Below, in pieces: positions 599 to 40,800 of a stretch of DNA of 64,000 bases. The stretch lies in the sequence record PZ496581.1. One strand, written 5' to 3'. Every line of letters begins with the position of its first letter. Position 1 is the first letter of the stretch. Source of the DNA: a phage. A program made the translations under genes and the position numbers. The notes under the pieces are model-generated. The model saw nothing but the letters and a program-made list of their open reading frames with translations, did no database searches and was not told the DNA's origin.

Positions 599-3310
599 TC
601 AAAAATCAAACATATCGAACAGAGATGCTTTCTTCTCGTAATCGAGTTTAGCTGCTGATGTGAATCCTTCAAGTGGTTTAATAAATGTCTTCTCAAGGAG
701 AACAGTGTAGTCCATCCAATGAAGTACATCGTCTTTAATTAAATCTGTGATTTCAGTACCAGAAGGCCATGCGATACATTTATCACCGAATGGGTTTCCT
801 TCACGTAAAGGCAGAACATATACTTTTTCACCTTCTACAACTTGCGGTGCATCGATATTACCTTTGATAGCCCGGTTATACGTCAGAATTCCACGAATAT
901 GGAACGGGCATTTGGGACCAGGGAATCCACCGACGTCATATTTAGCAATGTTATTCGCAGAAGATACCGACGCGATGCTAATATAATTCAACTGACGGAA
1001 TTCTTTTTCAAACTCTTTAAAATATTCTTGTAATGATTCTTCACCTTCCTGAAGCATACGACGAATACATTCCTTAAGAGCTTTCTGTACTGCTTTAGGA
1101 GTCGAAGATTTCTGTGTTTCGAGACCCATGATTTTAAGCTTAGGTTCAGCGTATCTGGTTCCTTCCATATCCCATACATTCAAGGCATAACGTTTCTTAC
1201 CTGTCCAAAATCCGCCAATACCTTTAGAACCAAGCGGAGGCCCAGCGATAGCTTCTCGGTCCATGAACATTAAGTGTTGTTTATTGTTCATGTATTCACA
1301 CATTTCACGGAAACCTCTATCAATAGCTGGTTCCATACGTTCACGTGCAAACTTATCTAAGAAGTCTACCCAATGGTTGGTATCACGGAATTTAGATTCA
1401 CCAACCTTATCGATAATTTTATCGGCAGATACGTAAATAGAGTCTGTATCACCATAAAGAACGAAAGCTTCACCTTCTGTACCACAAACTTCATTCAGAT
1501 ATTCATTAACTTTACGTTCAATCCACTGTAAAGCCATTTGTCCGAATGTTGTGATTGCAGTAGCATTACGCAAATCATAATAACGGAACCAAACGTTTCC
1601 AAGTGCACCATAAAGTGAGTTGATGAGCAATTTACGGTTAATTTGTGCAGTCATACCTGCAACTTCAGTACGTTGAGCTCTAAACAACATTTCATTAAGA
1701 GATTTAGCAGACAACTTTTTAATCTTTTCTTTAATCTCATCGCTGAAGTCGAAACGATAATCAACATCTAATGGTTCGTCAACAGAAAGATTAGGATTAT
1801 GCAATGCCTCTTTAATTATTTCACCATTACGTTGAGCTGCAAGCATGTAACCTTTATGTTCTTTACGTTGATTAAAGACCTTAGTGATTTCAGTTGGAAC
1901 TACACCATCACGGTCTTTATAATACATCATGCCGTTAGGAGAACAACTGTACACATCTGAAGGACGTTCAGCGATTGCGTTAATATAATCATGCAATGGA
2001 GCTACTTTAAACGTTCCTGCTATTGTTTCCGGGCTAATATTCACTTGGCGAATAATACTTGGATACAGAGATGTAAGGTCGAAACTCATTACATATTTGT
2101 ATCGATTTGGAATAGGTTCCTTAACAAAAGCGCCAGGATAAGGTTGAACCGGGTGAGAACGACCTTGTGGAATCACCTTGTTCTGTTCTTTAAGGCTATT
2201 AAAAATAATAGCATCCCATGTTTTAATTGGGCCAAACACAGATTGAATCTGTATCTTAGCATAATAACCCATGTCCAAACTCAAGTTGATGAACTGACGC
2301 TTAGCATCAATTTGCAATACACGATACACATCGATAATGTTATAAGAAATATATCGTTGGTGATTGCTTTCACGAAGTTTAGAAATAGGGCCGTCATATT
2401 TCAGTTTACCAACGTTCAATTCAAATTCTGAAATGTAATCCAGAGAATACGATGGTTGATTGGTAAAAGAGAATTTTTTGTAAAGGTCAATGTAATCAAG
2501 AACAGAGATACCGAACAATGTAATGATTTCACGAGAACCATACATGTTTTCGATAACTTTAACACGAGTTTTACGATGTGGTGATAAACGTTTCGCAGTA
2601 GATTCGCCAAAAATATTCTTGATTCGGTTATACACATATGGAATATCGAATGACTCAACGTTCCATCCAGTCAAAATGACAGGAGTTTTCTGTTGCCAGA
2701 AGTTGAGATATTCCATCAACAATTCTTTTTCGTTATCGAACGGTATATAAATGATTTTATCGATAATTTCGGATGGAACTTCATCACCACCTTGTTCTTG
2801 AAGCTTAGCCGCAATTTCGATAGACCATTCTTCTACATTACCATACGGAGAATTCAATAGATCAAATACGTAGAACCTGTCGTCAATTGAGTCATAATGG
2901 GTGATAGCATCAATCGGATGTTTTGCTTGTGATGGCTCAGGGAACCCATCCGGAGATGTTACTTCGATGTCGAAGTTAGCCACACGAATTTTTGTATGGT
3001 CGTATTTGATTTCATAGTTATAAGTGTCAGACAAATACGCCAATTTGAAATCGTCCATACCAAGTGCTTCAAGTCCGATATCTTCCATGCGTTTAATCCA
3101 TTGGGAGGCATCACGCATATTAGCGAACAACTTACGAGTACACGGCTTACCGTAGATATCGAAATATTTCGTAGCCTGACTTTCTGGACAATGAGCAAAC
3201 AGTGATGGTTTATATTCTACTTCACGAGTACGTTCACGGCCATTAGAATCGATGTAACGTTCAAAAATTGAATCACCAATCTGTTCAACCGTTAAGTAAA
3301 ATTCTTTCAT
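599..3310 (-). CDS. 43: DNA polymerase, family B (gp43)
   Basis: 903-aa ORF with exo motif FDIEV and polymerase motifs SLYPS and YGDTDS; length and N-terminus as recalled for RB69 gp43. Confidence 0.97.
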   Translation of the reverse strand: MKEFYLTVEQIGDSIFERYIDSNGRERTREVEYKPSLFAHCPESQATKYFDIYGKPCTRKLFANMRDASQWIKRMEDIGLEALGMDDFKLAYLSDTYNYEIKYDHTKIRVANFDIEVTSPDGFPEPSQAKHPIDAITHYDSIDDRFYVFDLLNSPYGNVEEWSIEIAAKLQEQGGDEVPSEIIDKIIYIPFDNEKELLMEYLNFWQQKTPVILTGWNVESFDIPYVYNRIKNIFGESTAKRLSPHRKTRVKVIENMYGSREIITLFGISVLDYIDLYKKFSFTNQPSYSLDYISEFELNVGKLKYDGPISKLRESNHQRYISYNIIDVYRVLQIDAKRQFINLSLDMGYYAKIQIQSVFGPIKTWDAIIFNSLKEQNKVIPQGRSHPVQPYPGAFVKEPIPNRYKYVMSFDLTSLYPSIIRQVNISPETIAGTFKVAPLHDYINAIAERPSDVYSCSPNGMMYYKDRDGVVPTEITKVFNQRKEHKGYMLAAQRNGEIIKEALHNPNLSVDEPLDVDYRFDFSDEIKEKIKKLSAKSLNEMLFRAQRTEVAGMTAQINRKLLINSLYGALGNVWFRYYDLRNATAITTFGQMALQWIERKVNEYLNEVCGTEGEAFVLYGDTDSIYVSADKIIDKVGESKFRDTNHWVDFLDKFARERMEPAIDRGFREMCEYMNNKQHLMFMDREAIAGPPLGSKGIGGFWTGKKRYALNVWDMEGTRYAEPKLKIMGLETQKSSTPKAVQKALKECIRRMLQEGEESLQEYFKEFEKEFRQLNYISIASVSSANNIAKYDVGGFPGPKCPFHIRGILTYNRAIKGNIDAPQVVEGEKVYVLPLREGNPFGDKCIAWPSGTEITDLIKDDVLHWMDYTVLLEKTFIKPLEGFTSAAKLDYEKKASLFDMFDF

Positions 3311-4327: not shown

Positions 4328-5290
4328 TTATTTCCAAGTCAGTTCGCAGGTCAGTTGAAGAAGCATATACATAACATGTAATTCAATATTACTTGCTAAT
4401 CCATGAAACTTATTATTTTCGCCTGCAATTTCATAAAGCGAAATAATACTTTTACCTGGTGCAACTTTGTCATAACACTCAGAAACTAATTTATCGATGA
4501 ACCATGAATAATCAGCGGCATATTTTGGAGCTAACGCACGAAGCTGTTTGATATCTTTATTTTTCATTGCTTCTATGACATCATCTACCGTGCCACGATC
4601 ATTGGTTACAATCGACAAAATACCTGCATCAAGAACACCTTTAGACGAGTACTGGTCTAATTGACCAATTGTACGTCGAAAGTCCGGGAAGTTCTTTTTA
4701 ACCAGAGCTGCAACAACTTTCATATCAGCGATTTCGATATTTTCATTCTTACAGATTTCAACCATACGATGAATCATTTTCTTCATCATTGAGATTTTAT
4801 CTTCTTCGGTTGGACGTCCGAATTCGATAACTCGACAACGACTACGTAATGGTTCAATAATTCCATCGATGTTGTTGGCAGTAATAATAATAGAACAGTT
4901 ACTAGAGAATTCTTCCATGAATGTACGAAGGTGACGTTGTGATTCGGCGAGGCCACTACGGTCAAATTCATCAATAACAATAACTTTAGGTTTGCCTTCC
5001 ATTGAGACTGAACGAGCGAATGCAGTTAACGGACCACGCACAAAATCAATCTTACAATCAGAACCGTTGACGAACATCATTTCGGCATTGATATCATTAC
5101 ATAATGCTTTTGCTACGGTTGTTTTACCTGTACCAGGAGAAGGAGAGTGCAAAATAATATGAGGAAGTTTTCCTTTAGATACTAAAGACTTGAATGTTTC
5201 ATGGTCATACGCGGGCAGAATACATTCGTCAATGGAAGAAGGACGATATTTCTGTTCTAGAATGTGTTCTTTGGAATTGATAGTAATCAT
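4328..5290 (-). CDS. 44: clamp loader ATPase gp44
   Basis: 320 aa with Walker [11 protein letters not shown] and Walker B VIVIDEFD. Confidence 0.95.
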
Positions 5291-37482: not shown

Positions 37483-37567
37483 AACATTTTCCTCTGTAGT
37501 TGATAAGTCTATAGTATCACATCTAGGGAAGAAGTAAACAACTTTTTTAGTAAGTTATAGACCCCCT

Positions 37568-37589
37568 AATGGGGACCGAAGTCCCCATT
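37568..37589 (-). other. UUCG-tetraloop RNA hairpin
   Basis: AAUGGGGAC-UUCG-GUCCCCAUU directly after the stop of the 37592-38218 gene. Confidence 0.5.
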
Positions 37590-37591
37590 CT

Positions 37592-38218
37592 TTACTTACG
37601 AGTTTTTGCATACTGAGCAGCGTCAGCAGCCAAACGACCTGCTTGTCGAAGTTTTTCTTTAATCTCATCATGAAGTGGTTGAGTATACTTCAAACCTTCG
37701 ATAGTCAAATAAAGACGATAAAGGTCTGGGGTATCAAGGTTGTTGATATGTTGGCCATTACGAAGAATATTGAATTCACGAACGAGTGAAGATGTATCAG
37801 ATTCAATATCACGAACAAGCGAAGATAGTTGTTTATATTTTTTTTCCAGGCTAGAAGTATCAAACTTAAGAGCAGGAGCTTTAGGAGTTGCTTTTACTTC
37901 CGGCTTAGGCTCAGGTTTTGCTATTGCTTTAGGGGACGCAGGTTTAGGAATGGTAGGAGCAGGTTTTACTTTAGGCGAACCCGATTTAGCAGAAACACCA
38001 CCACTAACAATATCTTTGAATGCTTTAGAAGCTCTGTAATATTCTTTTTGGCTGGAAGTGTCGATACCGTACATGGCTTGAACGTTTTTGAAAAACTCTG
38101 TACTAGTTTTTGTACCAGAAATAGCATCGTAAGCAGCTTGCCATTTCTCTTTTGTCATACGTACACCGGCTTCGGTGATTACTTCCGTTTCGGCTAAAAA
38201 TTCATTAAAAGTATACAT
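37592..38218 (-). CDS. internal-protein-like, capsid-targeting N-terminus and Pro/Lys-rich linker
   Basis: 208 aa; MYTFNEFLAE N-terminus; PKVKPAPTIPKPASPKAIAKPEPKPEVKATPKAP low-complexity tract; TATAAATA late motif upstream. Confidence 0.6.
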   Translation of the reverse strand: MYTFNEFLAETEVITEAGVRMTKEKWQAAYDAISGTKTSTEFFKNVQAMYGIDTSSQKEYYRASKAFKDIVSGGVSAKSGSPKVKPAPTIPKPASPKAIAKPEPKPEVKATPKAPALKFDTSSLEKKYKQLSSLVRDIESDTSSLVREFNILRNGQHINNLDTPDLYRLYLTIEGLKYTQPLHDEIKEKLRQAGRLAADAAQYAKTRK

Positions 38219-38262
38219 TGATGGTCCTTAGAAAGTAGGTTTATTGTTTACTATATTTATAC

Positions 38263-38293
38263 AAAAAAGCCCCAACCTTTCGGAAGGGGCTAT
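38263..38293 (-). terminator. intrinsic terminator (duplicate of 27760-27790)
   Basis: same GCCCC...GAAA...GGGGC hairpin plus U tract on minus RNA. Confidence 0.6.
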
Positions 38294-38593
38294 ATACCTT
38301 GTCGGGTTCCCACCTGCTAAGGCAAGTGTTTGTACGAAACGCCGGGATTCGAACCCGGTTATTAAGCAGTTGACGCTACTCAATATTTTTAAAAGGCCAT
38401 ATCTCGACCATATCCGAACGTTCCGTCAAAAACGCTACTCGGCTTACGGCAAAGATATTTCCTCGAATCGATAATTCTGTGCGCCGTTTCTGCTGTGATG
38501 TAAGGGGATATTAACGAATCATAAAGATTTATTAAGACCAGTCCTTACTCAGGGAACATCAGTCCGACGACTTGCCGGTAGCGACCCGGCTTC
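38294..38593 (-). ncRNA. tRNA-like structured RNA region (possible small stable RNA)
   Basis: no ORF; minus-strand CCGGGTTCGAATCCCGG T-arm; GAAACG ~170 nt upstream can pair the 3' CGTTTC; terminator downstream. Confidence 0.35.
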
Positions 38594-38939
38594 TTATTTT
38601 GGCATATCATCAATTTGCTCTCGACGCCGACGCCATAGATTAATCGCTTCATAAACACATTCAGCATTTGGTATATGACGACAATAGTATAGTGATTCGC
38701 GTTTCTGGAACCGATGTTGTAATGGAATTTCGTTTAAAAGGTCTTTACGGTCAAAGTATTCAAAACTAGTTAACCCTGAACGGTTTTTAAGAAACTTCCA
38801 ATGTCCGAATTCATTTTGAAAATAGACATAATCAGCATGCTGATACAGCGAATTAATTAACCTATCGGAAATAACTGTTTCACGTTCGTTAAAATAAAAC
38901 GTTAAGTCATGAACTACCAGATAAATATTGCCCTTTCAT
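38594..38939 (-). CDS. hypothetical protein with apparent 1-nt frameshift after codon 3
   Basis: ATG at 38939 with GAGGA SD reads MKGQYLSGSS-stop; the other frame is open for 114 codons with no in-frame start codon. Confidence 0.4.
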
Positions 38940-39018
38940 ATTTTCCTCACTTGAAGTTGGTGCCTCTAGAAAGATTTGAACTCTCACCATTAACCTTAGA
39001 ATGATTATATGCTATCCA

Positions 39019-39684
39019 TTACACTATAGAGGCAATTAAATTATTTACAATATCTTCTTTATAAACTTCAGCATAATGAAGTTCATATATTTCCCATCCT
39101 AATGATTTTATAATATCATGGCGTTCTTTATAATAAGGGGCCAAAATCTTTTTCTTAGGATTGGAGTAATGTTGATTTCCATTAACTTCAATAATAATCT
39201 TTTTATCTATTAAAGCGATATCCGTGCAATACGCTCGGTTTTTAACCGGTTGGTATTCTTCAATAAATGAAATTCCGTTTTCTATTAATTTAGATTTCAA
39301 AAATTCACAAGGCACAGATTTAAATTTTGTATTTTTCTTCCAAGGATGTTTATCGGGGTTTTCATTCAACCATTTTTTCCGAGCATTAGATATTTTTATT
39401 CTAGATTCCTCAGAGTGTTCTCTACCTAATGAAGCGGCTGACAATTTTTGTCTAGTCTCTTCCGAAATTACTACAGGAACACCAGTCTTTTTAGATACAA
39501 CATACTGGTTTAAATTACCTGAAGCTATACGTGCTTTATTCATTGCTGCAATGGCTGATTTAGAACTTTCTTTATACAATTCCAATTTAGGGTTGGATTT
39601 ACACCATCTAGTGTGGTTAGCCATCCATCCTTTAGGTTTATTAGAAATATCAAATTCCATATTACAATGTTTACAAATGCTCAT
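39019..39684 (-). CDS. homing-endonuclease-like protein (Zn finger + NUMOD3-like repeats + Vsr/DUF559-like nuclease)
   Basis: N-terminal CKHC...HTRWC; ISEETRQKLS / SEESRIKIS repeats; C-terminal DIALIDKKIIIEVNGNQH...GWEIYELHY. Confidence 0.6.
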   Translation of the reverse strand: MSICKHCNMEFDISNKPKGWMANHTRWCKSNPKLELYKESSKSAIAAMNKARIASGNLNQYVVSKKTGVPVVISEETRQKLSAASLGREHSEESRIKISNARKKWLNENPDKHPWKKNTKFKSVPCEFLKSKLIENGISFIEEYQPVKNRAYCTDIALIDKKIIIEVNGNQHYSNPKKKILAPYYKERHDIIKSLGWEIYELHYAEVYKEDIVNNLIASIV

Positions 39685-39757
39685 TACCAATTATCTCCTA
39701 TAAATATAGGAGTATTTATTATTTGGATAGAGCACTTAATTTACTTCGTTTAAATTA

Positions 39758-39829
39758 CTGGCGCACTTGGACTCGAACCAAGATAAAGGAGTTAACAGCT
39801 CCCCGTAATAACCTTTATACGATGCACCA
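39758..39829 (-). tRNA. tRNA-Asn (anticodon GUU), CCA not encoded
   Basis: manual cloverleaf: 7-bp acceptor, GGGAG/CTCCT anticodon stem, loop CUGUUAA, T-arm CTTGG-TTCGAGT-CCAAG. Confidence 0.6.
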
Positions 39830-39835
39830 TTTGTT

Positions 39836-39910
39836 TGGTGACCCTGGCTGGTTTCGATCCAGCTACCTATCAGTTATGAGCTGACAGCTCTCCCATTGAG
39901 CTACAGGGCC
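39836..39910 (-). tRNA. tRNA with CAU anticodon (Met, or Ile if lysidine-modified), CCA encoded
   Basis: manual cloverleaf: GGCCCTG/CAGGGTC acceptor, D-stem GCTC/GAGC, anticodon loop CUCAUAA, 3' ACCA. Confidence 0.65.
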
Positions 39911-39989
39911 TAAATAACTTTCTATTATGAAAGGCACTTTAGAGCACCTTTGGTAATAGAGGGTACGAATTAATAATAACACATAATTC

Positions 39990-40505
39990 TTAAAGCAAAT
40001 CAATCATTTTAACAGTTGGCAAAACGATTTCTTCTTCAATATAAGCAAATTCAACACATTCAACTACACGCAAGAAATCATAATCATAATATTCAGAAGC
40101 ATGGCCAAGAATATCAATGAGACCTTCTGATACCAAATATCCATTCTCACGGAACAGGTCGAATACACGCGATTCGTCTTCTTCAGATTTATTACCAAGG
40201 TCGACTTCAATATCAAAGACCTTTTTAATGAATTCTGGATAAAGCTGGTCTGAGAACAGTCCTTCAACCAAGTATTCATAGATTAAAAGCGAGCAATCAC
40301 TGAATGGTGTATTACCACAGTAACGTTCAGCTTTAGTGCTAGAATGACGACTCTTAAATTTCTTCAAGAGATATTTAAACTGTTGGAGCTCATGCTCTTC
40401 CACACCAAATAATGTTTTGGTTTTATAGTTGTCGCCGTCATTTTCCGAAGTAGTGACATCAATTACGTAACCCTTAGGAATTGTACTGCCTAAACAAATA
40501 TTCAT
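39990..40505 (-). CDS. hypothetical acidic protein
   Basis: 171-aa ORF. Confidence 0.55.
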   Translation of the reverse strand: MNICLGSTIPKGYVIDVTTSENDGDNYKTKTLFGVEEHELQQFKYLLKKFKSRHSSTKAERYCGNTPFSDCSLLIYEYLVEGLFSDQLYPEFIKKVFDIEVDLGNKSEEDESRVFDLFRENGYLVSEGLIDILGHASEYYDYDFLRVVECVEFAYIEEEIVLPTVKMIDLL

Positions 40506-40509
40506 TTAC

Positions 40510-40800
40510 TCACCGTACCATATTAATGTAATTATATTCAATGCAACGTAATTTCAAAGGATTCTTGAAAATATCATATTCAAGAGGGCCTTTTTCTGTT
40601 TCAATAAAGAAATCAAAGTTAACTGTGTTAAATTTATCATCTTCACAGAGTAATTTAACCTGTGAAGATGAACGGTCGATATAAACCTTTTCAACCTCAA
40701 AGTTAGTCAGAATACCGTAGTCATCGACTAGTGCTTTAGCTGCACGTTGATCGCTTTCATATCCATTCTCAATGGACGATACTTTAGCATAAAGAATCAT
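40510..40800 (-). CDS. hypothetical protein
   Basis: 96-aa ORF. Confidence 0.5.
   Translation of the reverse strand: MILYAKVSSIENGYESDQRAAKALVDDYGILTNFEVEKVYIDRSSSQVKLLCEDDKFNTVNFDFFIETEKGPLEYDIFKNPLKLRCIEYNYINMVR

Follow-up and report, generated by a model that had tools for sequence, protein, structure and literature searches.

We describe a gene that is likely a mobile and selfish, free-standing Vsr-like homing endonuclease gene, of a rare structural type, in the transfer RNA (tRNA) cluster of a Mosigvirus-like (RB69/JS09 group) T4-related phage. It lies in a stretch of 64,000 nucleotides (nt) of sequence record PZ496581.1, hereafter the window, whose nearest record across this region is Escherichia phage HY126 (98% identity). 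Compared with the gene-less phage JS09, a block comprising tRNA-Asn, the endonuclease gene and a T4-type tRNA-Arg replaces the native tRNA-Arg gene, with borders at the 3´ end of tRNA(CAU) and at CCAACTT just past tRNA-Arg. A preliminary description, made from the sequence alone, had read the gene as a free-standing homing endonuclease gene; this interpretation is supported, as a new example of a known phenomenon and not a new principle. Beyond that reading, we document a tRNA-Arg gene that had been overlooked, show that it takes the place of the native tRNA-Arg and equate the site with the segB slot of T4.

The locus and its alleles

On the minus strand, the order is tRNA(CAU), a 6-nt spacer, tRNA-Asn, the leader, the open reading frame (ORF) and tRNA-Arg:

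39836-39910, minus: tRNA with CAU anticodon (ARAGORN, called Met; Rfam tRNA, 59.4 bits)
39758-39829, minus: tRNA-Asn(GUU) (ARAGORN; Rfam tRNA, 53.6 bits)
39685-39757, minus: leader of the endonuclease gene, 73 nt
39019-39684, minus: endonuclease ORF, 221 residues from ATG, TAA stop within the coordinates
38958-39033, minus: T4-type tRNA-Arg(UCU) (ARAGORN; Rfam tRNA, 57.6 bits)

The three tRNAs score 53-59 bits where the Rfam tRNA gathering score is 29. As had been reported, the ARAGORN-called tRNA-Asn(GUU) and tRNA(CAU) genes adjoin the endonuclease gene upstream on the same strand, but its most consistent neighbour, tRNA-Arg(UCU), had been missed. The 3´ end of the ORF overlaps this tRNA by 15 nt, and the first 15 nt of the tRNA (GCC TCT ATA GTG TAA) are the last four codons of the ORF (ASIV) and its stop. 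Read from ATG, the protein is one residue shorter than the 222 first given; an in-frame TTG at 39690, two codons upstream, would make it 223, and an identical 666-nt coding sequence (CDS) is annotated in the Mizar record. On the other side, the insertion is bounded by a conserved left flank, tRNA(CAU), whose sequence is unchanged in gene-less JS09 and whose 5´ part resembles T4 tRNA-Ile(CAU).

The distribution of the gene is sporadic. When a 2.4-kb region was used as the query, 815 phage records matched, only about ten of which span it fully. A homologue was found by tblastn in 35 records. The preliminary description had pointed to polymorphism across related phages as a check on homing, and such polymorphism is plain: about 11-12 records of Escherichia phages carry the gene at a window-type locus, 120 records have a gene-less junction with tRNA-Arg(UCU) a few nt beyond tRNA(CAU), and among the Klebsiella Jiaodaviruses a 64%-identical homologue is present in 5 of 184 matching records. 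An exact empty site is also found. Klebsiella phage Merci has tRNA-Leu-AA-tRNA-Arg (T4 type) and no gene, while phage Shark has the same two tRNAs with a cassette of ~0.7 kb between them; since the flanking tRNAs are identical, Merci represents a precise empty site.

Acquisition of the gene goes together with a change of tRNA-Arg allele. The resident tRNA-Arg (CGAGGCATAGCTCA...) is completely different in sequence from that of the window (GCCTCTATAGTGTAATGG...), which is of the T4 type. No gene-carrying allele in Mosigvirus or Jiaodavirus has the native-type tRNA-Arg, and most gene-less relatives do have it, including phage Roth01, which carries the native type instead of the T4 type. Phage DCP548 has a chimeric tRNA-Arg(UCU) (L005, about 2655-2731), the 5´ two-thirds being of the gene-linked T4 type and the 3´ third of the native Mosigvirus type. 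The two parts join at the boundary of the variable loop and the T stem, the acceptor stem is unable to pair and ARAGORN does not call the gene; judged by its sequence, DCP548 seems to be without a working tRNA-Arg(UCU).

Intact and decayed copies exist side by side. The protein is 99.5-100% identical in eight distinct phage isolates (nine records), and the ratio of nonsynonymous to synonymous substitution rates (dN/dS) between lineages is 0.06-0.23, which indicates purifying selection on the protein. In PTE-Eco05 the reading frame is shifted by +1 within a run of A, G2285 retains no more than tRNA-Asn and the leader, and AV115 has a larger deletion whose endpoints lie in the T-arm of tRNA-Asn and in the tRNA-like 3´ end of rnaC (GGGTTCGAATCCCGG). 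Sporadic presence, an empty site, recombination at the borders and degenerate copies beside a selected intact gene are together the features that a homing cycle would be expected to leave.

Within Mosigvirus, tRNA-Asn occurs only in genomes with the gene or with its deletion remnants and is absent from gene-less JS09. The window tRNA-Asn, with its 5´ AACAAA included, is 100% identical to that of the Salmonella Gelderlandvirus SEA1, where it is followed directly by a native-type tRNA-Arg, and this identity supports a cargo gained in another genus. We consider that tRNA-Asn is probably cargo that came with the endonuclease gene. Its ties to the gene and to the remnants, along with replacement of the native tRNA-Arg by a foreign, T4-type one, bear out the earlier suggestion of hitchhiking tRNA genes.

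A separate observation concerns tRNA identity in Merci. Its tRNA-Pro(TGG) gene (L012, 1074-1149) is nearly identical, except in the anticodon arm, to the tRNA-Thr(TGT) genes of relatives (L011, 1060-1135; L003, 3232-3307), which suggests that a phage tRNA gene has switched its anticodon.

A modular protein with a Vsr-like nuclease domain

The domain order given in the preliminary description, namely an N-terminal Cys/His zinc finger, NUMOD3-like repeats and a C-terminal domain resembling Vsr/DUF559 nucleases, held up in our analysis, with the parts encoded as follows:

39601-39675, minus: N-terminal CCHC zinc finger (C4, C7, H24, C28), from conservation and the structure model
39370-39486, minus: two NUMOD3-like helical repeats, residues about 67-105, from Pfam and model helices H75-85 and H92-108
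39022-39360, minus: Vsr-like (EDxHD-like, PD-(D/E)xK superfamily) nuclease domain, residues about 109-221

The zinc-finger residues are kept as CKHC..NHxRWC in most full-length homologues, and the finger is modelled as a beta-beta-alpha unit with a predicted local distance difference test (pLDDT) score above 95 (about 96). The NUMOD3-like helices, of which the second repeat was spotted by eye, are presumed to form a DNA-binding linker; the Pfam match is weak, falling under the cut-off (E 1.5e-3, 18.9 bits against 20.4). Over the nuclease domain, DUF559 exceeds its gathering cut-off (21.3-21.4 bits against 20.6), RAP is the best Pfam match of the protein but lies just under its own (E 4.3e-5, 23.8-23.9 bits against 24.2), and MTES_1575 also matches. 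Across 33 family members, RAP matches 29 (counted at E<=0.01), MTES_1575 16, DUF559 12 and NUMOD3 7. The protein matched no NCBIfam family, and PADLOC gave only a meaningless match to a winged-helix model (E 2e-3); the gene therefore does not belong to a known defence system.

The family is large, with 131 homologues from a word-indexed database search and, from an exhaustive one, 1421 representatives of clusters at 50% identity at E<=1e-3 (209 at E<=1e-30). What is conserved is a C-terminal region of ~115 residues (NPDKHPWK..KFKS.PCE.LK...EEY...DIA...IEVNGNQHY...YYQERHD..GW). The N-termini vary, with the CCHC finger in the closest relatives and helix-turn-helix (HTH) or other modules elsewhere, a modularity that is characteristic of homing endonucleases from phages.

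An AlphaFold2 model built on the family alignment has a mean pLDDT of 89.4. In both fold searches, the top solved match is the catalytic domain of I-Bth0305I (Foldseek against 3r3p: E 5.7e-4, probability 1.0), and fold comparison bears out the Vsr-like variant of the PD-(D/E)xK fold for the catalytic domain. I-Bth0305I is the prototype of the EDxHD homing endonuclease family (PDB 3R3P; PMC3239194). We aligned its sequence, gp29 of phage 0305phi8-36, to the family profile, taking the roles of the motif residues (E170, D196, N208, H213, D222) from the published work (PMC3239194). E127 and D155 of the window protein correspond to E170 and D196, and I-E166-V-N168-G is identical to I-E206-V-N208-G. 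The candidate catalytic residues E127, D155, E166, N168 and H172 are invariant or nearly so among the 33 homologues, and all are present in the window protein; their absence would have spoken against the preliminary interpretation.

The two proteins share a Vsr-like fold, the E...D...IEVNG...H residues and modular, NUMOD-type N-terminal DNA-binding repeats, as well as matches to Pfam DUF559 and MTES_1575 and to PHROGs 503, 4538 and 559. They differ in setting, since I-Bth0305I is encoded in a group I intron of a recA/uvsX gene whereas the window gene is free-standing between tRNA genes, and in their N-termini, which are of the NUMOD2/HTH type in I-Bth0305I and consist of a CCHC zinc finger and NUMOD3-like helices in the window protein. 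To our knowledge, I-Bth0305I is the only EDxHD/Vsr-like homing endonuclease to have been characterized biochemically.

Vsr, DUF559 and RAP proteins have the fold and the core motif in common with the window protein. Vsr is a chromosomal enzyme that nicks at T:G mismatches and has a zinc site inside its catalytic domain, and RAP proteins are eukaryotic organellar RNA-binding and RNA-processing factors; neither is a mobile element. An HNH identity can be set aside, as no HNH family appears among the Pfam matches of the window protein or the 33 members and the fold is of the PD-(D/E)xK type. GenBank records L007 and L008 nevertheless label homologues "HNH endonuclease"; no HNH motif supports the label, which appears to be an annotation artefact.

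Parallels in genomic behaviour come from other phage enzymes. Like the window gene, Hef of T-even phage U5, which we compared by description only, is a free-standing gene of Vsr-like/EDxHD type in a T4-related phage; Hef (Sandegren et al. 2005) was placed in the Vsr-like family by PMC3239194. Hef sits between nrdA and nrdB and the window gene in a tRNA cluster, but Hef takes the place of mobE at the same site, as the Vsr-like gene takes that of segB (see below); the replacement of mobC and mobE by SegH and Hef is cited in PMC3239194. The F-TflI, F-TflII and F-TflIV genes of T5 are likewise free-standing endonuclease genes inside a phage tRNA array, although their catalytic motif is HNH and T5 belongs to another phage family. 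Their expression is thought to be limited by tRNA-precursor processing (PMC2330249). In the literature, we found no description of the present subfamily, and none of the EDxHD papers that we found concerns tRNA clusters.

Two unrelated endonuclease families at the segB site

In T4, the order is tRNA-Ile(CAU), 41 nt, segB (221 residues, GIY-YIG), 5 nt, tRNA-Arg, rnaD and rnaC. Gaprivervirus PSD2001 is colinear with this arrangement, having the same tRNA-Ile and, downstream, tRNA-Arg/rnaD, with a Vsr-like gene in the place of segB. The spacer TATTTT(G/T)AGAA is common to the two phages, and the PSD2001 leader aligns with the segB leader along (C/T)ATAAATACTC(T/C)TA...AATAGGAGAT.TTT.ATG. Two unrelated endonuclease families therefore occupy one tRNA-Ile/tRNA-Arg site.

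The proteins themselves are not homologous. BLASTP of the window protein against T4 SegB gave no similarity (best E 2.1) and the Pfam scan no GIY-YIG match, and the catalytic folds differ (GIY-YIG against Vsr-like), in line with the earlier contrast to the GIY-YIG Seg enzymes. SegB and the window protein nevertheless have the same slot between tRNA-Ile(CAU) and T4-type tRNA-Arg, the same length of 221 residues, homologous leaders with a hairpin sequestering the Shine-Dalgarno (SD) sequence, and a stop codon at or beside the tRNA-Arg 5´ processing site. SegB cuts tRNA genes, spreads itself along with its tRNA neighbours and favours the inheritance of flanking tRNA genes (PMC2330249). By analogy, the comparison supports a functional likeness in which the window element, also free-standing in a tRNA cluster, would carry neighbouring tRNA genes. 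SegB recognizes tRNA genes at their 3´ ends, in the T-psi-C region, whereas the target of the window enzyme would lie near the 5´ part of tRNA-Arg.

Homologues in tRNA arrays of other phages

Association with tRNA genes extends well beyond Mosigvirus. Twelve of the 13 homologue contexts are tRNA clusters, with tRNA-Arg(TCT) directly adjacent in eight, and they cover six genera or groups of Straboviridae (Mosigvirus, Gaprivervirus, Jiaodavirus, Gualtarvirus, Karamvirus and Acinetobacter T4-like phages), as well as metagenomic contigs and phage TM30 of Rhizobium, which is unrelated to them. In Mosigvirus, Gaprivervirus and two lineages of Jiaodavirus, the ORF reaches or runs into the 5´ end of a T4-type tRNA-Arg; the reverse order, with the gene downstream of tRNA-Arg, is seen in the Providencia, L018 and Rhizobium phages. 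A 42%-identical homologue in P0015 sits elsewhere in a T4-like genome, outside any tRNA cluster. A rule that the gene is always next to tRNA-Arg fails, since the Acinetobacter (Asn/Ser), L016 (Gly/...), L019 and CkP1 contexts have no adjacent tRNA-Arg(TCT) and the P0015 homologue has no tRNA cluster around it.

Other features of these arrays deserve mention. The homologue in metagenomic contig L019 has its 3´ end 15 nt inside a tRNA(CTA) (3113-3187), an overlap as long as that in the window. A tRNA with the amber-reading CTA anticodon also lies beside an RF-1-domain gene in Acinetobacter phage phi1_092060 (L007, 52-126 and 489-725). Other small ORFs in T4-like tRNA clusters run a few nt into the 5´ end of the next tRNA, one of them with a faint NUMOD3 match, and these are perhaps additional endonuclease genes packed in the same way:

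CkP1 (Citrobacter; L021), 65-592 and 4642-5136
Providencia phage (L006), 3519-4046 and 4222-4407
L016, 1502-2155

A structured leader with a late-promoter-like element

The 73-nt leader contains the following elements, part of the outer stem reaching into the coding sequence:

39730-39738, minus: 5´ arm of the outer stem
39713-39720, minus: late-promoter-like AATAAATA
39695-39712, minus: inner hairpin, holding the Shine-Dalgarno GGAG at 39695-39698
39674-39682, minus: 3´ arm of the outer stem, covering the G of AUG and the next codons

In the outer stem, GUGCUC, upstream of the promoter element, pairs with the AUG-proximal GAGCAU. The leader RNA folds at -19.2 kcal/mol (z -3.15), and none of 200 shuffled sequences folds as well. 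The outer stem is kept in five loci, where three one-sided changes preserve pairing. In six of six homologous loci, a perfect T4 late-promoter consensus, TATAAATA, starts 37-49 nt upstream of the ATG, accompanied in each by a hairpin sequestering the SD and AUG. A generic promoter scan found sigma-70-type sites not to be enriched (6 found, 8.5 expected).

The same promoter and hairpin scheme has been described for I-TevI, I-TevII, I-TevIII, segB and Aeh1 mobE (PMC2988022, PMC2330249). Long early and middle transcripts hide the ribosome-binding site, and late ones start inside the structure and are translatable (PMC2988022, PMC2330249). Expression of the window gene would probably be low and late, from a T4 late promoter placed inside a structure that, in longer transcripts made earlier, would keep the ribosome-binding site and start codon covered. 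The overlap with tRNA-Arg may add a further constraint. Because the stop codon is inside the downstream tRNA, maturation of the 5´ end of tRNA-Arg would leave a truncated mRNA. For segB, it has been proposed that the stop codon is lost through the cut made at the 5´ end of tRNA-Arg when the precursor is processed (PMC2330249), and given the larger overlap here, of four codons and the stop, the same stop loss is expected.

On the opposite strand, the leader hairpin was also read as a terminator-like site, called at 39695-39712 (plus), and a perfect TATAAATA lies within it at 39699-39706 (plus), arising from the near-palindromic loop; we regard this plus-strand copy as probably coincidental.

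Sequence downstream of the block

On the 3´ side of tRNA-Arg is a homologue of RB69 ORF150c (38594-38938, minus); JS09 and Mizar have this CDS intact, at 345 nt. At about 38925-38938 the window has ATGAAAGGG where relatives have ATGAAAGG(C/T), so that the frame is shifted at codon 3 and stops after 10 codons; the window copy is either a pseudogene or the product of a homopolymer sequencing error. Further downstream, at about 38330-38610 (minus), come homologues of two small stable RNAs of T4, rnaD (species 2) and rnaC (species 1), followed by a G+C-rich hairpin and a T run that by eye resemble an intrinsic terminator; the terminator scan does not list this site. In an Rfam E-value scan of 37500-40600, only the three tRNAs were found, with no family for the leader or for the rnaC and rnaD homologues.

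Proposed homing model, probable target site and alternatives

We suggest that homing would begin when a gene-carrying phage and a related gene-less phage infect the same cell. The enzyme would cut both DNA strands within the gene-less phage's tRNA cluster, most likely in the short tRNA(CAU)/tRNA-Arg spacer or in the first ~50 bp of the native-type tRNA-Arg(UCU). Recombinational repair would then copy the whole donor block, (tRNA-Asn) - endonuclease gene - T4-type tRNA-Arg, and the linked allele, which presumably resists cleavage, would supplant the resident tRNA-Arg. If both the window-type and the DCP548-type acquisitions arose by break repair, the break lies within the segment replaced in both, which comprises the tRNA(CAU)/tRNA-Arg spacer and roughly the first 49 nt of the native tRNA-Arg. 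We give this placement of the cut, in the spacer or at the tRNA-Arg start, an even chance of being right. Nuclease activity, cut position, immunity of the linked tRNA-Arg allele and regulation are what we infer from these comparisons.

The same element might instead cut the empty junction just 5´ of a T4-type tRNA-Arg, such as the tRNA-Leu-AA-tRNA-Arg junction of Merci. Homing would then be classical, with insertion destroying the site, and replacement of tRNA-Arg in Mosigvirus would be a by-product of illegitimate or homeologous recombination. In favour of such a target, there is an exact empty site with identical flanking tRNAs, several lineages have the ORF abutting or overlapping the 5´ end of the T4-type tRNA-Arg (with the 15-nt overlap of another tRNA in L019), and I-Bth0305I cleaves immediately beside its own insertion site (PMC3239194). 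A junction target does not readily account for the absence of the native tRNA-Arg from all gene-carrying Mosigvirus and Jiaodavirus alleles when most gene-less relatives have it, nor for the DCP548 chimera, which puts one recombination junction within the native tRNA-Arg, nor for the position of the gene downstream of tRNA-Arg in the Providencia, L018 and Rhizobium phages. We regard this target as possible but somewhat unlikely.

Several observations weigh against our interpretation or parts of it. In the alignment with I-Bth0305I, H172 is offset by one residue from H213, the Asn-to-His spacing of the window protein being one residue shorter. The fifth EDxHD residue, D222, falls on the invariant Y184, and E187 and D190 nearby are not conserved across the family, so that the final motif Asp has no conserved counterpart. 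Sequence similarity between the two proteins is marginal (about 23% identity), and hhalign of the family profile against I-Bth0305I is weak (probability 36%, E 3.8e-4, a single pair, 89 columns). Sequence searches of the PDB gave nothing significant, with no match to the full family profile (HMMER) even at E<=10 and chance-level matches to the C-terminal domain (3hrl at E 1.5), so it is fold comparison alone that links the domain to solved structures. The resemblance to EDxHD enzymes noted earlier therefore stands for the Vsr-like fold and four of the five motif positions and does not extend to the last Asp or to robust sequence homology, leaving strict EDxHD membership only partly established. 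In the leader, the window clade has AATAAATA and not the consensus TATAAATA, so the window copy may be weakly expressed. Covariation is weak, five sequences having given only one-sided, pair-preserving changes, and the structure rests on conservation and thermodynamics. Furthermore, TATAAATA occurs at chance frequency in the AT-rich window (8 found, 7.9 expected), so the promoter argument rests on its conserved position across loci. Lastly, the Merci allele, a T4-type tRNA-Arg without the gene, fits the two target models equally well.

The change from TATAAATA, present in every other lineage, to AATAAATA could also mean that the window copy is an inactive or barely expressed relic that spreads passively by general recombination or through other nucleases, in keeping with the degenerate and deleted copies in close relatives and the frameshifted ORF just downstream of tRNA-Arg. 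We find this improbable: the ORF is intact and its product near-identical in eight distinct isolates, none of the candidate catalytic residues is missing, dN/dS relative to other lineages is low (0.06-0.2), and read-through from upstream promoters could supply mRNA, as proposed for segB (PMC2330249). An RNA-directed role is less probable still. The protein could be a RAP/FASTK-type nuclease or RNA-binding protein that acts on the polycistronic tRNA precursor, for example in tRNA-Arg maturation, given that RAP is the best Pfam match and is found in 29 of 33 members, that RAP-domain mitoribosomal proteins and FASTKD4 score nearly equal to I-Bth0305I in the fold searches, and that the gene is placed within tRNA operons and overlaps a tRNA. 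However, the sporadic distribution, exact empty site, recombination scar and degenerate copies all point to a selfish DNA element, gene-less phages have functional-looking tRNA-Arg genes, the family-variable NUMOD3 and zinc-finger or HTH N-termini are typical of DNA-binding homing endonucleases, and the closest solved structure is that of a proven DNA endonuclease. An RNA-directed function is thus very doubtful.

A further, speculative extension, to which we attach little weight, builds on homing. The lineage could act as a "tRNA-array drive" with a cleave-and-rescue logic, destroying the resident tRNA-Arg(UCU) and carrying a resistant tRNA-Arg together with cargo such as tRNA-Asn. Translation of the endonuclease would here be coupled to tRNA maturation, with RNase P cleavage giving a non-stop mRNA. 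In a more radical version, the RAP-like domain may also, or instead, act on the pre-tRNA transcript.

The locus offers an unusually complete natural series for intron-less homing, with susceptible, exact empty, occupied, chimeric scar and frameshifted states and deletion remnants. The gene also stands for a large uncharacterized family whose members are labelled "hypothetical" or, wrongly, "HNH" in public phage records. A homing element that replaces and adds tRNA genes across genera bears on the evolution of phage tRNA repertoires and possibly on evasion of tRNA-cleaving defences; the SegB/Septu work links phage tRNA repertoires to escape from tRNA-targeting host defences (PMC13096335). If true, a tRNA-array drive, in either version, would make such elements active shapers of the tRNA repertoires of phages.

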